From NCBI GenBank assembly GCA_051047955.1, contig JBPGPT010000001.1, positions 434,001-498,000 of the forward strand: DNA of 64,000 nucleotides. Direction: 5' to 3'. The notes under the pieces were generated by a model. That model was not told where the DNA came from. It ran no database searches and saw only the letters and a list, made by a program, of their open reading frames with translations. Each line of letters begins with the position of its first letter. The stretch's first letter is position 1. The stretch is from Cystobasidiomycetes sp. EMM_F5 (Eukaryota). The position numbers were made by a program, and so were the translations under genes. Below are positions 22,272-55,027 of this stretch, piece after piece.

Positions 22272-22860
22272 TCACTTGTGCAGGATATGCTTTGCCTTGT
22301 CGACAAGGCTTTCCTTGTGCTCTGCAAATCAAACAAAACAAACCTTTTTCAGCCAACTTTCCACATATGAGAAGCGGTCAATGTACGCACCTGCCCCTTT
22401 TGTATTGCCATCAGTGTGCGAAGTGCTACCAGCGTGACTGGGAGCAGCGGGTGTTGCGCCAGTCGCAGCTCCAGCGGGGGCTGCTGCCGAGGCGGCATCG
22501 TCGCTCTTGCCGTCGGTGTTGAGATGCTGCGTGACTCCCCAGTCCTTCTCTGGCTTCTTTGCGATCTCTGCGTCCAGCTGGTCCTTCAGATCCGAGTGGA
22601 TAGCACCTTCTTTCGGTCCCTTATTACCGAGGTGGGGAATGTCATCTTCCTTTTTGCTGTCAGACTGGTCGCCCTTCATGTTGGCGTGGTTGCTGGCACC
22701 TGCACCTGGACACATTCCCAGCATATAGCATGCGTGCGTTAGCTGTGACCGTTTGTAGCATCGCTAGCCAAGCTGCTGATGTCGACACACCTGCGGGAAG
22801 CTCGGGCTTCGGGGGAACCGCCGGGTCGGATTGCGCTTGCGGAGTATTGGAAGCTTGCAT
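22272..22860 (-). CDS. Small hydrophilic hypothetical protein (stress-protein-like composition)
   Basis: Three plausible exons MQASNTPQ.. / ..GAGASNHANMKGD.. / EHKESLVDKAKHILHK*; no recognised domain. Confidence 0.55.
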
Positions 22861-23371
22861 CGTCGTTGTTGTTCTACTACTTGTTGTGAGTGGAAGAGTA
22901 GATTGTAATTGGTCGCAGTATGGGTATGTCGAAAGATAGGAGGAGCCTGTCAGCGTCGCGTCATGGCATCCCAAAAATAGGGGCTTCGGCCGGACGACAC
23001 TTGCAGACAGCAGTCTTTAGATGCAAACTATGCTGTGCAATAATCACAATCACAATCGAATACACTCATACATTTATACATCTTCGTTGTGCAGTCGGGA
23101 GTAGCAGACTTTGGAGCATGATACTGTCCATCTTATCACTGTCTAGAAAGTCGTACTTTTGCGGAGACCGGATGGAAGCAAGACCGGAGGCTTGTCGCCG
23201 ACTGCGCAGGGCATGTTGTAGTCGGCGTGATTTACTGTGATGCACATTGGACCGCCGTTAGACCGCTGACGACGACACAATGAGTTGTTCTTACGTCTGG
23301 AAATGATTGTAAACGACGTCAAATCAGTTCGAGTACGCCATAAGGTCATGCTTCGACTCAGCCAGTGCGCA

Positions 23372-23911
23372 TCACAGCGTTCTACGCGCGACCAACGCGT
23401 AGGTAGGTTCTGGTCGCTGGCCTATCACTCCGGCATTCGGTCGTCGCGGAGATCTATTTCGCTCACTGACGGAGCCTGCTAGTAGCTTATTACTTGGCGG
23501 ACCGATAGCTCCCGGGACACGCCCCCACTTGGGAGGCAACTCTTCGCTCCCTTCTCGCAGCTGCTGTCGCATCTTTGCGCCAGGAGATAACGATCGATGA
23601 GTTGAGCCGGCCGCATTGCTGGAAGAGGCAGGCCGGAACGCTGGTACTGCTGGATTAAATCCGCTGAATGTAGCAGTACGAATAGGAGTGCGCGGGCGGG
23701 CCCCCTGAGGATTGGGAGGTTCAGTCATCCGACGTTGTAAGCTGTTTGTTTAGAACAAGGTTATCGAAGTCAGCAACAGCTTGGAACATATCAAAGACAC
23801 AGTAAACACTGCTTACGTTTTCTCGCCCGACATTCTACTGTGTAACGGAATAGACAGGGTCCTATTGTGACGCAGGTGAGTCAGTATGGCTAGTATATCA
23901 AGCCATATCAT
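23372..23911 (-). CDS. Orphan small-protein family, paralog 1 (PAM2-like motif, LQRR site)
   Basis: Exon ..TLSIPLHSRMSGEK(T), phase-2 intron, then LQRRMTEP..RTATFSGFNPAVPAFRP..LLAGS..RPNAGVIG..TYALVARRTL*; homologous to the two neighbours; 5' end uncertain. Confidence 0.65.
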
Positions 23912-24494
23912 ACGCCTCGCATGCCTAGGTAATTAGCAGGTAGGGATCATGGGTGGGCCTCCAGTGTTGTGTGGGCAAAAGAGCGAAGAGACAGGCTCTC
24001 CGTAGCATCGCCGTATGCATGTCAATGCAGATTCAGAGTACGATCAGTTGGTGCGGTGCTCGGCACAGAAAGTCGCACCAACTTGAGATTTGCGGACAGG
24101 ACCCGGTGCTGGATGCGCAACTCAGATTGCGGGAAAGGTGTGTGATGGATCAGAGTAGGAACAGGAAAGACTCACGAAATATACTGAACTAATCTGCAGC
24201 TATCCTAACATTGCAAGAGGTGAAATGGGACTAAACGAAATGTAATCAGATGAGCCCCGCTGGAGTCAAACACATGGCCGGCGTTCGCGAAGGTCACCTT
24301 GGCGTGTAATTCAGCTGAGGGTACGAGGACTGTTTGCTACCCACGTAATGGCAACCTGGGTCGATGACTCACTAAACTGAATTCACGACTTATGGATTCT
24401 CATGATACGGCGACTGGTACACACTTACTGCTTAGCTACCTCAACTCAGGTCGGCGGCCGGTATCGGGTCACGCTACGATTCAGTTAGGAGGAA

Positions 24495-25201
24495 TCACTG
24501 CGTGCTACGTGCTACCAATGCATAGTTGACAGATCGAGAGTTGCGCTTGTCGCCTATCACCCCAGCGTCGGGGCGTGGCGGCGAAGTCTCTCGAGTGGAA
24601 CCTGCTAACAATGCATTTCGCACTACGGCGCGAGGAGAAGGCGTTCGCGGCGGCCGAGCTTGTCCAGATTTTCCGGAAGCACCAGATGGCCAAAGTCGCC
24701 ATCCTTGCGCATTGCTAGAAGGGGTAGGTTGAATGGTTTGTGCAGCAGGATTCAGTCCGCCCTGCGTAGCAGTACGATTAGAATCGGTTGTCCCTCTAAC
24801 TTGGGTACTTGAGGGCTCGGTCGCGCGACGTTGTAAATCACTACTATTTTTTTAACGTCTCGATCGTCAGTGATAGCTTTAACATCATGCGAATTGTACT
24901 TACGGTGTCTGATTGGCGATACCCGCTAGTCGGACATTAAGCGCGCGAAGCCGATCCTGACTGCTGCTGACGCCAGCTTCAGCTGATGTTGTAATAGGAG
25001 AAATGTTAGACTAACGACATGGAGGAGTACGTTCGATGTTTCGTAATATGGCTTTGGCGCACTGGGATAGCGCGGCAACGTGTGAGTCATCGTGCCGAGG
25101 AAAACTACATCGCGTACCGGGTGTGTCAGTGTGATCAGCTGGCAGGCTCCTGTCAGGCGCAGGTTGGTTATCAACGTACAGCAGAGCAAATAGACCAGCA
25201 T
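24495..25201 (-). CDS. Orphan small secreted protein family, paralog 2
   Basis: Four exons: MLVYLLCFFLGTMTHTLPRYP (signal-peptide-like) / EAGVSSSQDRLRALNVRLAGIANQTP / SDLQRRATEP..RTATQGGLNPAAQTIQP..LLAGS..RPDAGVIG..NYALVARSTQ*; GT-AG introns. Confidence 0.7.
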
Positions 25202-25515
25202 GACAGCAATTCATAGTAATGCATAAAGACAAAGCAATACCGCCTTGAGATTTCCGGACGAAAAGTGGGTGGATTCGAGATTGTGTACAGGCTGTGCTTG
25301 CGAAGCGGCAGGACGGCGATGGGAATAACCCCATGTATGGTCGACAATATCAGGGTTGGAGACATTGTACGGGACGTGTATGTTAGTCATGTTAGTCAAG
25401 TTTTCAATCGTGAGAAATGTAGGGTACAATAAAGCGCAGAAGCTAGGCTGGAGACATCCAATCTTCGAATTTCGTACCAGGAACTCACAAGGCTTCATTG
25501 GACGGTAGCCAGATG

Positions 25516-26678
25516 CTACTTTTGTGCTATCTCTGCCCAGGTCGGCACGCGCCGCGGAGGTTGGGAGTGTGGACGACGCCCGCTCCCACTTTCGCTCATC
25601 GAGTTGCGTTGTCTTCGCCGATGAGAGTTCCAACCGTCATAGACCACTTGCCGTTGCGGTGGTACCGCTGTGCCCATATTGACTAGTGGAAGTAGGGCAC
25701 CGGTGTTGTGTCGTAGCTCTTCTCTGAGCCGAGACGGATCTTGAACTCGGGCAATCGCCCCTCCCGTTTTGTCACTGGACAGAGATCTGGGTAGTAAGGG
25801 GTCGGTGCCTTTCCTCAACTCTCGCATGAGAGGACTCGGTTCATGCCTACAGCAAGACGGGCAGGAATTTCAGCTCAAGACCTACGGGATATCAGACATC
25901 GCATACCCTAGATCCCGCATGATCCGCTCTTGGGAGCGTGATGACAGTCTAGTCTGATTGCCTTGTAGGGACGATGTGGGGTTTCGACCGCGAGGTGACG
26001 GCGTACTCGGTAGATTGTTCCACGGCTGAAAATCCGCAACTTCAGGCTTCCAGGGTGTAAATGAGGGAGCAGTAGGGTTGAGTCCCTTTATTCCGGTAGT
26101 CGCAGCTCTAGACAGTCGAGGCGTTGTGCTCCCGCTTGAGCTGCTTGCGCGTGGTGGTGCTCGAATAGGTTCTGTACTCCGACGAGGCAGGTTGGCCCTG
26201 AGAATGAGACCAAATGTAAGGCTCTAATATACAATGAGAAGTTCTGACGGAAGTAAGCACACTTACGCTTCCCATGCTGCGTCTTCCAAGGCCTGATTGA
26301 GAGCTGCGAGCCTGTTTCTGGAGAGGTTGCATGTTTCAGCTGGACAATGTCACACCAGCCAGGGAGGACGAGTGCTTACTCTGACATTGCGTGTGCAGAA
26401 TCTTCCCGAGTCTATTGGTGGTAGAGGTGTGATCAGACCTACATCTGCGCTACAGCATCACACAGAAATGGCATTTTATAGTCGACGTTGGGGATGGTTC
26501 CTTTGTACTTACACGGTACTGCTCTGACAAGAGCATGTAGGGCAGCGGCAGTGTAAGCTGTACAGACAAGGGATACCATGTATTGTTAGCGCGTCAATCC
26601 CGTCAATCTAAGGTCAGAGCCAGAGTCATAACGGAGCAAAGGCAAGCAGCAGGATTTGTTAGTAATGTGAGGCATCAT
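25516..26678 (-). CDS. Orphan small secreted protein family, paralog 3 (strong PAM2-like motif)
   Basis: Exons ..NRLAALNQALEDAAWEA / ANLPRRSTEP..IKGLNPTAPSFTPWKPEVADFQPW..MRDLG / HEPSPLMRELRKG..RRVPTWAEIAQK*; upstream exons MMPHITNKSCCLPLL / YTAAALHALVRAVP are signal-like, but 5' splicing is uncertain (alternative ATG 26387). Confidence 0.65.
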
Positions 26679-27169
26679 CGCAAGTCCTGAGAGAATAATC
26701 ATTCAGCGATGGACGCAATCCAAGCTGTTATCTGCATGAAATTCAGTGTGCCCCTCGAGCTCGATTGCTGTACCCCTATTTTGGATCTTGCGGTCCCGGC
26801 CGAACTGAGCTCGCATCCAGCTTTGTCCCAGACTAGGGCACAACATTACACCAGTCTGACTGCGACAAAGTGCAACATCATGAACGTCTAGCATCCTGCA
26901 CTGCGCCCCCCGACAACGGAGTGCGGCTGGCTCGCTTCAACCGGGGCTGGCTTTGAAATTAGGGGTGTATCCGATATTTTGTGAGGCTGCGGGCTGGTCG
27001 GACAACACTCACCAGCCAGGCAGCAAGCACGGCCGAGCTGCATTTGAGTCTGCTCTGGTTACTCTCCGGATATCCTCACTCTGTCCGACAAGCGACGAGC
27101 TCCCGTCTTATCGGCACTTCGCCCATCCCAACCTCTGTCACTATCACAACCCTTACCAACAACTCCAAC

Positions 27170-28255
27170 ATGCAAGTAGCCGCCCCAGCAATGCTGCCAT
27201 CGACAAGCAGAACCAGCTCCAGGAGTACCCCGTTATCTACTCCGGCCCTTTCGCCATCCTACACTGCCACCTCACTCGCCGAAGAGCACACATCCTACTT
27301 TTCATTCGGTCTGCTCCAGCCAGACGAGCTAGACGACCATTCTGAAGACGAGCAAGACAAAGCCAACAATGTGCCAGCAAAGTCTCCTGGTGGCTTCATG
27401 TCGGCTCTGCCGTCCTTTGCATCACTGCCGTCACTCCTCCGCAACGCAAAGAGCAGCAAGGGGTCAACGCTGTCTAGCAACACCGACACAACCCTCACAT
27501 CGTCAGACAACACCCACAACAGTATCAAAGTGAGCTCAGAGCCTGTCGGACAAATGAAACGTACATTGCTAACGTCTTTCGAGCAATCTCAGCCCACGTT
27601 GGACGACATGTCGTCATCACTCACCCACAACCGCAATCAGAAGTACATTCACCAAAACATCGACACTGGCGAACTGCCACACACAGACTACGATGCCATT
27701 GCACGATGGCTCGCTGCAAACACCCACGAACGCACAGACACAAACTCTGCCATCATTCACCCTCCTTATTCAGCAGTAGGCGCTTTCCGGCACATTGCCT
27801 ACCTCAACGACTGTGCTCCTCTTACTGCCAAAGAACTCGCTCATCATGACGACGAGAATGTAAGTTATGTTGGCAACAAACGGTACATTGGGGCGGAAGA
27901 GCGTGAAAAGGCTGTAAACCAAGGCGGCAGCCAATCGCGGAATCTAGGCAGCCTTCTCACTTCCTTCTTCTCCTCAAACCCATACTTTGTGCATAAGCGA
28001 GGCAACTCGGATGCCCGTTCAGCTTGCAGTGATATACCTAAGTCTGGCAGCGAAGTACCGCAATCTGCTGAAACTGCTCTTCGCAAGACTCTATCACGCA
28101 CAGAATCCTGTCGTCAGATCATGTCGACGTCGCAAATGCAAGAGTACAGTAGTGCCGGATCACCTCCGGAAACTTCTTACAGTACAGATTTGGTCAAGAA
28201 GCCATCGAAGCGCGTTCCCGTTACTGCAAAGGTTGCTGTACGCGGTCTCGAGTAG
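27170..28255 (+). CDS. Ser/Thr-rich, probably disordered hypothetical protein
   Basis: Long uninterrupted ORF (26981-28255), first ATG at 27170; no recognised domain. Confidence 0.7.
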   Translation: MQVAAPAMLPSTSRTSSRSTPLSTPALSPSYTATSLAEEHTSYFSFGLLQPDELDDHSEDEQDKANNVPAKSPGGFMSALPSFASLPSLLRNAKSSKGSTLSSNTDTTLTSSDNTHNSIKVSSEPVGQMKRTLLTSFEQSQPTLDDMSSSLTHNRNQKYIHQNIDTGELPHTDYDAIARWLAANTHERTDTNSAIIHPPYSAVGAFRHIAYLNDCAPLTAKELAHHDDENVSYVGNKRYIGAEEREKAVNQGGSQSRNLGSLLTSFFSSNPYFVHKRGNSDARSACSDIPKSGSEVPQSAETALRKTLSRTESCRQIMSTSQMQEYSSAGSPPETSYSTDLVKKPSKRVPVTAKVAVRGLE

Positions 28256-28963
28256 TCTATGTGCTTATTCATCCACAAGAGCAGTCCGTTCCTGCCTGTT
28301 CGCCATTAGACATTGACCGCTCATCTCAGGCACTTCGCCACCAATGTCGACATTTCACTCATTCGCCCTGGCAGTCTACGACTTTGGCTCGTAGAGTGTC
28401 CACCTTCCAGCGACGCCCTTGCTTTTCCGGACTGGCGTTTGCTCTGCCGTTCATCGCTTCCGCAACTTACTAGATTCGTGTTCGCTTTCCGCAAGGGTTA
28501 TTCTGCAAGCCGCAAACCGCAACCGCAAGTCGCAATTGCATTTCGTTTCTATCAGTTTCTACTAGTCTGTCGTTCTTTATAGCTACTCACGCTCGTTTAT
28601 ATAGTTGAATGCTTTCGTGCGAAGTTATCAAGTGGCATCCTAAACCTTAGGCCTGACGATCAGCTGCAGATTATGTTTGCACTTGTCTGCATGACCATCG
28701 AATTTGGGCAGAAGGACGGAAGCGAATGCCGTGTTTGTATTCAACTGAGACTGACAAGTACGGGTAGTATTCGCAATACTGGCGGGACTACGTTTGATAG
28801 GCGTCTCCGACCTCGACATATTTGCTCGCGTCTGCCTACCACAGTACACCATGACTACTAATGATTGGCTCAATTGACACCGACTAAGTCCAAGTTGATT
28901 TGTGCACGAGGCTACTGGGGCTTCTTGAGCTGCCGTCGCACTGCAAGGACTGCGGCTCTGCTT

Positions 28964-29962
28964 TTAAGCCGGCGTGACGAACGTATGTTTGGCTCGTGCG
29001 ACGTGCACAACGTTCGAGCTCGCATCCATGGCAAGCGAACTCGACATGCCTCCATCAGCAACGTCAGACAAGAACTCTAGGCCAGCGTAGGCGAAGGGCG
29101 CAGGTTCCGAATCAGTACCGAATTCGCGAGCGACCGCACAGGTCCCGGCGCATCGACAGTCATGGCGAGCATCAATAGGTTCCATCCGGTTGGCCAGATC
29201 AGCCAGTACATCTAGCAATGTCAATCCAGCAGGATTCGTTACTTCGCGCTCTTCGGGACCACCAACCTCGCTTGTGAGGACCATGCTCTGGCAATGATGC
29301 CTGCTAATGAGAGCGGACGATAGGATTGGATGCCCACCTAACGACTTGGGACCGAGCCCCCGATTGATGCCACCCAACCCCTGCGGTGCGGGAAGCATGG
29401 CCCAACGTTTAGGAATGATGATGCGATTTTGTGTATGAAGGCTGTCGCACAGCTTGAACAGCCGGCATTCGATTTCCTTGTCTGCATTCAGATCAGCCAG
29501 CACACTCAGAGTCGTTGAGTGTACTGCTTAGAGGTACGACAAATCAGCTTCATGAATTCGGAAAGACAGCTTGGAGCGGTTAACAACGAGCTTACTATGC
29601 GTGTATGATGACTCGTACTCCGCGCATGCTGGGCAATTCTTTACGTGCTTGGCGATACGGATGAAATGACGCCGCCAAGACAGGTGGCTGTAGGGATGTG
29701 TGTTGGGTTTTCCGATATCGAAGCGGCGCAGTAACGATTGAGTAGCGTCTTCCGTGCCGATTCTTGACCGCAGAGCTCTGCATGTCTGCGAGAGGGCTAC
29801 ATGGCTAGAAAAGTCCAAAAAGCGACCGAGGTATCCGAAGACGTCTCGGTTGACGAGAACAAAGTCTACCAGGTACGCAGTGGTTGGCCGCGTCATTACG
29901 GGGTTTCGTGCATGAGAGCTCTCCTCCTTGCTTGGCTGTCCATCGTGTCGTCTTGAAGTCAT
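28964..29962 (-). CDS. F-box-like hypothetical protein
   Basis: VNRDVFGYLGRFLDFSSHVALSQTCRALR F-box-like motif; second exon 28964-29503; ends approximate. Confidence 0.6.
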
Positions 29963-36779: not shown

Positions 36780-37293
36780 TTGCCTTCTAGCATTTGCAGA
36801 CCGTTGAATAAGCTGGATGAGGCTGACAATTCTGTCTCCACTATAGCTCGTCTAGAGTTATACAACCTTTTTCAAAAGACGGCAGACGTACAAGACCACG
36901 TTCTTGACCCAAGACCGCCCACTACAGCAATCAAGCGTACGACGAGCGTGCGTCCGTATCTGTTGACTTGGCTTTACCAAAATTTAGACTCTATAGCCTG
37001 ACCGCCCGCAAGGGATATGCTGCCGGCTTGCTTTTGGATGCTCGAGCGTGTTCATTCACATTGCAGCTACAGGTTTGCTCGTTGATGAAGTCGCGTATCT
37101 TCGGCCAGTAGAAATCGCGCTGAATGAATTCGAAAGTCTTGACCTGTCCGGGATAAGCAGCCTCGACAAAATTGTACTGTAAGCCGACTGTATGGACTTT
37201 AACTTCTTCGCAATCGGGCATGCAGATGAGAGATCGGTACAAAAGAAGAAATCTTCGACTTGTCGAAGTTGTGGACTTGAAGTCCATCGTCAC
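36780..37293 (-). mobile_element. Degenerate Ty3/gypsy-type LTR-retrotransposon integrase fragment
   Basis: AYPGQVKTFEFIQRDFYWPKIRDFINEQTCSCNVNEHARASKSKP resembles the integrase Zn-binding region (HPG..KT..L.R.YYWP.M..DV..YV.SC..CQ..K) with lost ligands, followed by stop codons. Confidence 0.65.
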
Positions 37294-37674
37294 AACGATC
37301 TTGATGCGCCAGCGAAGTCGGTGAGATTTGAAATAAGGTCGGAAGTAGCTAGGTCGCCAGTCAGAGACGCTTTGAAATGATCCATAAGGTCGGAAAGTTG
37401 AGATTGAACAGTCGTAGAAAGCAACGTAGTTCGGACAGCGCTTTATGTTCGGCTTCCGATGCTCTACCCTCCGCCGCAGATTCGGGAGTAGCTAGACTAT
37501 GCTCCCCCCAGATAAGACCAACGTATTGTGAGAGCGAGGCTACGCCCCGTCTGCACGAGCACCATTTCCATGCCGAGGCTGATTGTCACTGATACTGACG
37601 AGATGAGCGCTCCAGCAACGGATACGTGAGGTTTGATCCGCTCAAGCCGGGATGAGGATACTCGTAGAATAAGC

Positions 37675-54876: not shown

Positions 54877-55027
54877 GGTTTTTGTGACTGCGACGGAGCA
54901 ACGGAGCGCCATACACCTCTATATAAATGTTCCTCCAGTTCGCACCCCGCTTCTCCCTCCTTCCTTCCATCAAAGGCTTCTTGCATACTCCTCTCAGCCC
55001 TCATCCTGACAAAACCTCGTACACATC

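Follow-up and report, generated by a model that had tools for sequence, protein, structure and literature searches.

A tandem array of three anciently duplicated fungal genes whose short conserved blocks are candidate processing or docking sites

Introduction

Do three small tandem genes of the fungus Cystobasidiomycetes sp. EMM_F5 encode ligands of the translation machinery, or do the short conserved blocks of their products serve another purpose? The genes (copies 1, 2, and 3) lie on the minus strand of a 64,000-nucleotide stretch of contig JBPGPT010000001.1 (positions 434,001 to 498,000; GenBank assembly GCA_051047955.1). This whole stretch is referred to here as the window, and all coordinates are given in its numbering. 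The fungal character of the window is apparent from a Fungal_trans domain, polyubiquitin, ALAD, AlaRS, and short GT-AG introns. An initial annotation of the locus drew attention to PAM2-like motifs, the type of peptide that binds the MLLE domain of poly(A)-binding protein (PABP), and to C-terminal sequences resembling CR2, the RACK1-binding region of LARP4. It proposed that the proteins are secreted and enter another cell, where they would bridge or block PABP and RACK1 through these motifs.

Here, we describe the gene models, divergence, and conserved blocks of the family. The reading that we favor, with a probability of roughly 0.55, is that the locus represents a tandem array of three anciently duplicated genes, in which the blocks are not a PAM2 or CR2 property of the family as a whole. 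Most likely, the proteins work through these short blocks as processing or docking sites.

Results

The three genes are arranged in tandem, with their 3′ ends at 23372, 24495, and 25516. We infer their exon structure from hand-built models, which were based on GT-AG sites, conserved intron phase, and paralogue collinearity; in all three models, the open reading frame (ORF) is intact and the introns are of the GT-AG type. Copy 1 (23372..23911) would comprise two exons (23817-23911 and 23372-23741) encoding 154 amino acids, and copy 2 (24495..25201) four exons (25118-25201, 25031-25061, 24904-24982, and 24495-24843) encoding 180 amino acids. Copy 3 (25516..26702) would comprise five exons (26633-26702, 26513-26557, 26267-26339, 25886/25907-26197, and 25516-25846), with a product of 269 or 276 amino acids depending on the choice of an in-frame intron. 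DNA likeness among the copies is almost lost; even the best stretch, which joins copies 1 and 2, reaches only 72% over 74 nt. The proteins of the three copies can still be aligned, with 47% identity between copies 1 and 2, and the paralogue alignments preserve the reading frames across multiple indels. Over 110 codons of copies 1 and 2, the synonymous divergence (pS) is 0.658, which is near saturation, and the nonsynonymous divergence (pN) is 0.356. Since synonymous sites are nearly saturated at this pN, the copies are ancient duplicates that have been retained under coding constraint.

This result bears on the possibility that the three ORFs are in decay or without function, or that the genes were mis-modelled, the motif likeness having arisen by chance. 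Such an explanation would be in keeping with the lack of homologues found, with the presence of an NCBI gene model for copy 3 only among the proteins retrieved, and with the two in-frame stops of copy 3, which need to be spliced out. However, nonsynonymous divergence at about half the synonymous level and the maintenance of frames through indels are not what decay predicts. The stops of copy 3 are also confined to a frame-preserving GT-AG intron, and the open frame of 109 codons past this intron ends in the C-terminal block of the family. We rate decay or mis-modelling as very improbable.

The in-frame intron of copy 3 (25847..25906, minus strand) contains the two stop codons, with its acceptor at 25847 and its donor at either 25885 (39 nt) or 25906 (60 nt). 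Only when the 39-nt or 60-nt version (25847-25885 or 25847-25906) is spliced out does the C-terminus become joined to the exon carrying the PAM2-like block. The NCBI protein EMMF5_000168, a hypothetical protein of Cystobasidiomycetes sp. EMM_F5, is identical to the copy 3 exon translations, and its gene model uses the 39-nt version. This model of 140 amino acids starts from the ATG at 26387 (MSE...), omits exon 26267-26339, and leaves the long frame after HEP through a second intron with a GTCCTC donor, ending in ...PVPYFH. Consequently, it has neither the hydrophobic N-terminus of the hand-built model nor the WAEIAQK end. We prefer the continuous 109-codon frame to the NCBI ending, because its end, SGRRPHSQPPRRVPTWAEIAQK, is collinear with the copy 1 end, RSPRRPNAGVIGQRPEPTYALVARRTL, and the NCBI model probably misses both ends of the protein. 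A profile search with the paralogues retrieved no NCBI models for copies 1 and 2, and the locus seems to be poorly annotated, with these two copies lacking gene models. A DNA sequencing run yielded only one identical contig of 242 nt, covering 25468-25709, and two short pieces over the ALAD gene.

The proteins contain no Cys, have isoelectric points (pI) of 11.5–12.0, and are composed of 71–82% disorder-promoting residues. AlphaFold2 (AF2) modelling of copy 1 with its paralogues gave a mean predicted local distance difference test score (pLDDT) of 54.9 and a predicted template modelling score (pTM) of 0.11, without secondary structure. Exon B of copy 3 gave a mean pLDDT of 58.1, and its only better-scored stretch comprises the last ~19 residues, with pLDDT values of 71–76. 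A Pfam scan of the copies detected no domain above the cut-off. These properties describe a family that appears to be lineage-restricted and intrinsically disordered by prediction, and whose modelled members are small (about 154, 180, and 270 amino acids), Cys-free, and extremely basic.

Among 63 candidates of near length, a search for homologues of copy 1 returned only the ORF of the window itself; among 969 candidates of longer length, it returned none. The paralogue profile, compared with 1.84 billion representative proteins, produced four matches at E<=0.001, two of which are the locus itself. The other two, long bacterial-type repeat proteins that match only around YTFSGW.P.V, were judged to be chance matches. 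In JGI metagenome contigs, none of the 599 and 312 pattern matches was confirmed by tblastn, and the ESM Atlas gave no usable match. A PDB sequence search with the motif region yielded 13 weak matches (best E 1.3), none of them a PAM2 peptide, and Rfam detected nothing in 22500-29000. The neighboring gene EMMF5_000169 is equally alone, returning only itself from the same database; therefore, the database is without close relatives and the missing homologues say little. The orphan status of the family reflects poor lineage sampling as much as novelty.

In the hand-built models, each protein would consist of a hydrophobic N-terminus followed by four conserved blocks embedded in fast-evolving spacer. 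Conservation was measured in sliding 10-column windows over the three paralogues. The LxRRxTEP block is at the top of the family with a value of 2.97, followed by the PAM2-like block G[LF]NPx[AV]xx[FI]xP (2.80), an SxRRP block (2.03), and the C-terminal block PT[YW]A[LE][VI]A[RQ][RK] (1.70), while spacer windows reach at most 1.4. The initial annotation had raised the question of whether its motifs are more conserved than their flanks; within this comparison of paralogues, both motif blocks exceed the spacer.

The best conserved block, which was not among the motifs of the initial annotation, reads LQRRMTEP in copy 1 (23717-23740), LQRRATEP in copy 2 (24813-24836), and LPRRSTEP in copy 3 (26167..26190), all on the minus strand and located by alignment. 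In the hand-built models, a phase 2 intron lies directly 5′ of the exon encoding LxRR in all three copies. When the window is translated in six frames, three of the four occurrences of RR.[ST][ED]P are the family copies. In each copy, L-x-R-R (LQRR, LQRR, and LPRR) matches the preference of the Kex2 protease for Leu at P4, Lys or Arg at P2, and Arg at P1. In silico, this pattern was reported in the pre-pro protein's first half for 33 of 120 fungal effectors (bioRxiv 10.1101/2020.05.27.120113). All three hand-built models start with Met and 9–10 hydrophobic residues, as do only 32 of the 1135 ATG-started open peptides in the window. The combination of a hydrophobic N-terminus and LxRR fits a Kex2-processed pre-pro protein. 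In such a mechanism, the N-terminal hydrophobic stretch would act as a signal peptide, and a Kex2-type protease would cut just behind the conserved L-x-R-R, which supplies Leu at P4 and Arg at both P2 and P1. Cleavage would then free a basic disordered polypeptide, as in Kex2-processed pro-domain (K2PP) effectors.

Several other assignments were tried and rejected. A P450-type membrane anchor was discarded because the hydrophobic stretch has only 9–10 residues in copies 1 and 3. Among other known patterns, the DLNxxP EAR motif does not match in spacing, and the eIF4E-binding YxxxxL-phi motif and a C-terminal PTS1 are absent.

The same block can also be read as a docking site. Basophilic kinases prefer L-x-R-x-x-S/T, and the block, with Leu at -5 and Arg at -3, fits this preference. 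RRMTEP, RRATEP, and RRSTEP fit the 14-3-3 mode I site, which has been given as RSXpSXP (PMC8093981), as well as they fit the Kex2 pattern. A Kex2 site suits the hydrophobic N-terminus and the clustering of orphan paralogues, and a 14-3-3 site suits the very basic composition and the remaining motifs of cytosolic type. Between a secretory and a cytosolic route, we lean tentatively toward the former. In the cytosolic alternative, the proteins would be endogenous adaptors: RRxTEP would be a kinase or 14-3-3 site, the PAM2-like block, at least that of copy 3, would dock on the MLLE domain of Pab1, and the C-terminal turn would dock on Asc1/RACK1. The proteins would then link poly(A)/PABP to the 40S subunit as LARP4 does, without a La module. 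The fit of RR[MAS]TEP to the 14-3-3 consensus and the NCBI model of copy 3, which has no signal-like start, are consistent with this alternative. Very basic, disordered proteins are also common among RNA- and ribosome-associated factors. However, the conserved hydrophobic N-terminus is left unexplained by adaptors of this kind.

The peptides quoted in the initial annotation are all present in the minus-strand translation at the places assigned to them. PAM2 peptides follow the consensus LNxxAxEFxP, and the statement of the initial annotation that eRF3 carries two overlapping PAM2 motifs agrees with the literature (PMC7356810). As described there, Phe10 is the main determinant, with Trp tolerated; Leu3 occupies a second pocket, in which Phe can substitute; Asn4 stabilizes a turn; and at position 7 anything larger than Ala is strongly disfavored on steric grounds (PMC7356810). 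In copy 3, the PAM2-like stretch IKGLNPTAPSFTPWKPEVADFQPW (26020-26091, minus strand) contains the unit LNPTAPSFTP (26053..26082), in which L3, N4, A7, F10, and P12 are all present and only Glu9 of the consensus is missing. The adjoining sequence, KPEVADFQPW (26020..26049), had been described as a second partial unit. A second unit does exist, but by-eye alignment identifies it as an in-register repeat of the first (xPx[AV]xxFxPW), (W)KPEVADFQP(W), with Lys4 and Val7. The corresponding minus-strand sequences are FNPAVPAFRP in copy 1 (23630-23659), with Val7, and LNPAAQTIQP in copy 2 (24726-24755), with Ile10. Determinants are thus broken in three of the four units, by Val7 in copy 1, Ile10 in copy 2, and Lys4 together with Val7 in unit 2 of copy 3. 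The invariant positions of the block are Gly(-1), Asn4, Pro5, and Pro12, which do not include the main MLLE determinants. The earlier claim of PAM2-like motifs across the family is therefore narrowed: unit 1 of copy 3 has a complete core, whereas each of the other three units deviates at a determinant position.

The two adjoining units of copy 3 (26020-26082, minus strand), NPTAPSFTPW and KPEVADFQPW, share 4 of 10 residues and ~53% of their DNA, as judged by eye. Since they have no more than this in common, this is an old internal repeat.

Among the 127,996 residues obtained by translating the window in all six frames, there is a single match to the strict core [LF]NxxAxxFxP, which is that of copy 3. 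The loose pattern [LF]Nxx[AV]xx[FIWY]xP matches four times, in the three copies and at one unrelated site. When each protein was shuffled 20,000 times, the strict core appeared in 0 to 1e-4 of the shuffles and an ELM-style PAM2 regular expression in 0.26–0.43%; these chance figures concern a pattern that was picked after the window had been read. In the Pfam PAM2 scan (PF07145) proposed in the initial annotation, copy 3 scored 12.6 bits (E=0.12), below the 20-bit cut-off, and copies 1 and 2 gave no match. As a control, 150 of the window's 202 ORFs of at least 95 amino acids were scanned, with 52 that had been scanned earlier or lie beyond position 55006 omitted. PAM2 was found in one of the 150, which is copy 3, and some family was the best match at E 0.01–0.5 in 35. 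Because 35 of 150 control ORFs reach similar E-values, the Pfam PAM2 match is by itself at noise level.

These results affect the adaptor alternative in both directions. It gains from the full PAM2 core of copy 3 unit 1, which lies in a region without a predicted fold, as judged by AF2 and composition, and unit 1 could plausibly dock on an MLLE domain as a fair candidate ligand. Basidiomycete precedents are Upa1 and Upa2, two endogenous adaptors in Ustilago maydis that bind the MLLE domain of Pab1 through PAM2 (bioRxiv 10.1101/2024.03.22.586338). Since these U. maydis proteins use PAM2 in this manner, an endogenous role would be a more economical form of the PAM2 idea than action in another cell. 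Conversely, the alternative is weakened by the determinants broken in three of four units and by the sub-threshold Pfam score. With roughly 300 known motif classes, some match to blocks of 8–11 residues is also to be expected. Overall, it is doubtful that copy 3 unit 1 serves as a functional PAM2 in any setting.

The C-terminal block, read from the minus-strand translation, is PTYALVARRTL before the stop in copy 1 (23375-23407), NYALVARSTQ before the stop in copy 2 (24498-24527), and PTWAEIAQK before the stop in copy 3 (25519-25545, or 25516..25545 with the stop codon included). It can be summarized as [TN][YW]A[LE][VI]A[RQ][RSK], with TYALVA, NYALVA, and TWAEIA at its center, and AF2 places a helical turn on WAEIA of copy 3. 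In LARP4, residues 615-625, with a central SYAEVC, bind blades 5-6 of RACK1, and the modelled YAEVC occupies a hydrophobic cavity as a helical turn (PMC11565960). The Y619E and C623E substitutions each largely impair RACK1 binding, and CR2 is reported to have arisen in the vertebrate LARP4/4B lineages (PMC11565960). The initial annotation had thus correctly cited a RACK1-binding region of the SYAE type in LARP4. Its likeness to the fungal block holds in part: the aromatic residue, Ala, Val/Ile, and the trailing basic residues are retained, but the essential Cys is Ala in all three copies. Pfam detected neither a La module nor an RRM in the copies. Because CR2 arose in vertebrate LARP4/4B and the genome considered here is fungal, homology is excluded by taxonomy and the likeness would be convergent, making it a lead rather than a sign of membership. 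For the cytosolic adaptors, the shared aromatic, Ala, x, and Val/Ile of YAEVC and the predicted helical turn are favorable. In contrast, the replacement of Cys by Ala in all CR2-like blocks and the definition of the CR2-like pattern post hoc, after the data had been seen, are unfavorable. Considering all of these points, we regard endogenous cytosolic adaptors as unlikely. The family as a whole does not appear to be constrained as a carrier of PAM2 or CR2.

The C-terminal block occurs a fourth time, as PTWAEIARKTLA, at 27567..27602 on the minus strand, with no other family block upstream. It is antisense to the branch-point/acceptor end of a 63-nt intron (27530-27592) and to the next exon of EMMF5_000169. 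Compared with copy 3, 21 of 27 nt match, and five of the six differences are synonymous in the minus frame; the ending ...AR[RK]TL is common to this sequence and copy 1. This sequence could be the remnant of a fourth gene that has been lost, or could have another origin.

The gene EMMF5_000169 itself (27170-28255, plus strand) encodes a Ser/Thr-rich protein of 340 amino acids without a Pfam domain; this gene and copy 3 are divergently transcribed. The 63-nt intron of EMMF5_000169 keeps the frame and contains no stop, so that without splicing 361 codons can be read from the ATG. Elsewhere in the window, an ORF at 36994-37491 (minus strand) contains an Integrase_H2C2 zinc-binding domain (E 3.5e-06) and is probably a retrotransposon remnant.

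Discussion

On present evidence, the locus is a lineage-restricted cluster of a typical kind, encoding disordered proteins that evolve fast. We favor the view that their short blocks act as processing or docking sites, with the LxRR block as a candidate Kex2 site; secretion, cleavage, and any binding are inferences. Several observations weigh against this view. At the N-terminus, the hydrophobic stretch has no basic n-region and runs into Arg, Lys, or His, an Asp lies within it in copy 1, and the NCBI model of copy 3, starting with MSE, does without it. The upstream exons are similar to one another only at noise level, with pairwise scores of 30–35 against a background of 28–37 in an all-frame comparison. 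The equally good 14-3-3 fit of the RRxTEP sequences hints at cytosolic proteins, and a pI near 12 is a common mark of nucleic-acid-binding proteins as well. Furthermore, some features favor functional motifs: unit 1 of copy 3 carries all five determinant residues of PAM2, its tandem repetition recalls eRF3, and the PAM2-like and C-terminal blocks are both better conserved than their flanks. In a single-sequence AF2 model, WAEIA of copy 3 forms a helix at residues 103-107 with pLDDT values of 71–76, the highest of the exon.

The mimicry proposed initially, in which secreted proteins would enter another cell and bridge or block PABP and RACK1, shares the secretory route with the reading that we favor. 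Its basis is also the hydrophobic N-terminus followed by LxRR, which fits a pre-pro secreted protein, and tandem, fast-diverging orphan paralogues are a typical feature of effector clusters in basidiomycetes. If a secreted protein carried motifs of cytosolic type, an explanation of this kind would be needed. The idea would also be new, since the titles and opening abstract lines of ten papers on PAM2, MLLE, and secreted effectors mention no secreted effector with a PAM2. Nevertheless, the paralogues do not keep the motif determinants, and other readings explain the same facts more simply. We consider mimicry possible but unsupported and highly unlikely, and its action in another cell speculation.

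A narrower proposal is confined to copy 3, which might be a convergent, minimal, La-module-free analogue of LARP4. A true PAM2 and a CR2-like turn would tie or block the poly(A)/PABP end and the 40S subunit, either in the fungus's own cell or, after secretion and Kex2 processing, in another. Although we regard this proposal as a long shot, its consequences would be considerable. If copy 3 does bind PABP and RACK1, it would be the first pairing of the PAM2/CR2 type outside LARP4, and perhaps also the first known case in which a secreted protein of a fungus imitates ligands of the translation machinery. A more general lesson is that a short-linear-motif match in one paralogue constitutes weak evidence when the other copies do not retain its determinants.

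Comparison with known systems places these possibilities in context. Copy 3 unit 1 has the core L-N-x-x-A-x-x-F-x-P in predicted disorder in common with the PAM2 proteins Paip1/2, eRF3, ataxin-2, and LARP4/4B, and with Upa1 and Upa2 of Ustilago maydis; its directly adjoining second unit recalls the two overlapping motifs of eRF3. Unlike these proteins, copy 3 lacks Glu9 and remains below the Pfam threshold, and the paralogous units carry Val7, Ile10, or Lys4. The carrier here is an orphan protein with a hydrophobic N-terminus in the hand-built model. With CR2 of LARP4/4B, the family shares an aromatic residue, Ala, Glu/Leu, Val/Ile, and a small residue followed by basic ones, as well as a predicted helical turn, and the order of PAM2 and then CR2 from the N- to the C-terminus is the same as in LARP4. 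The family differs in having Ala in place of Cys, in the location of the block at the extreme C-terminus rather than internally, and in the lack of a La module or RRM. Compared with 14-3-3 mode I sites made by basophilic kinases, the block has in all three copies its Thr at position 0, with Arg at -3, Pro at +2, and Leu at -5 around it; the position at -2 is occupied by Arg instead of Ser, and as a sequence pattern the block is a phosphorylation candidate only. The K2PP effectors described in bioRxiv 10.1101/2020.05.27.120113 are mostly folded and Cys-rich, whereas the present family is Cys-free and predicted to be unfolded, with a pI near 12 and a putative signal peptide. In form, the family resembles these effectors and the orphan effector clusters of basidiomycetes, which, as here, have no homologues elsewhere and combine a short hydrophobic N-terminus with tandem, fast-diverging paralogues.

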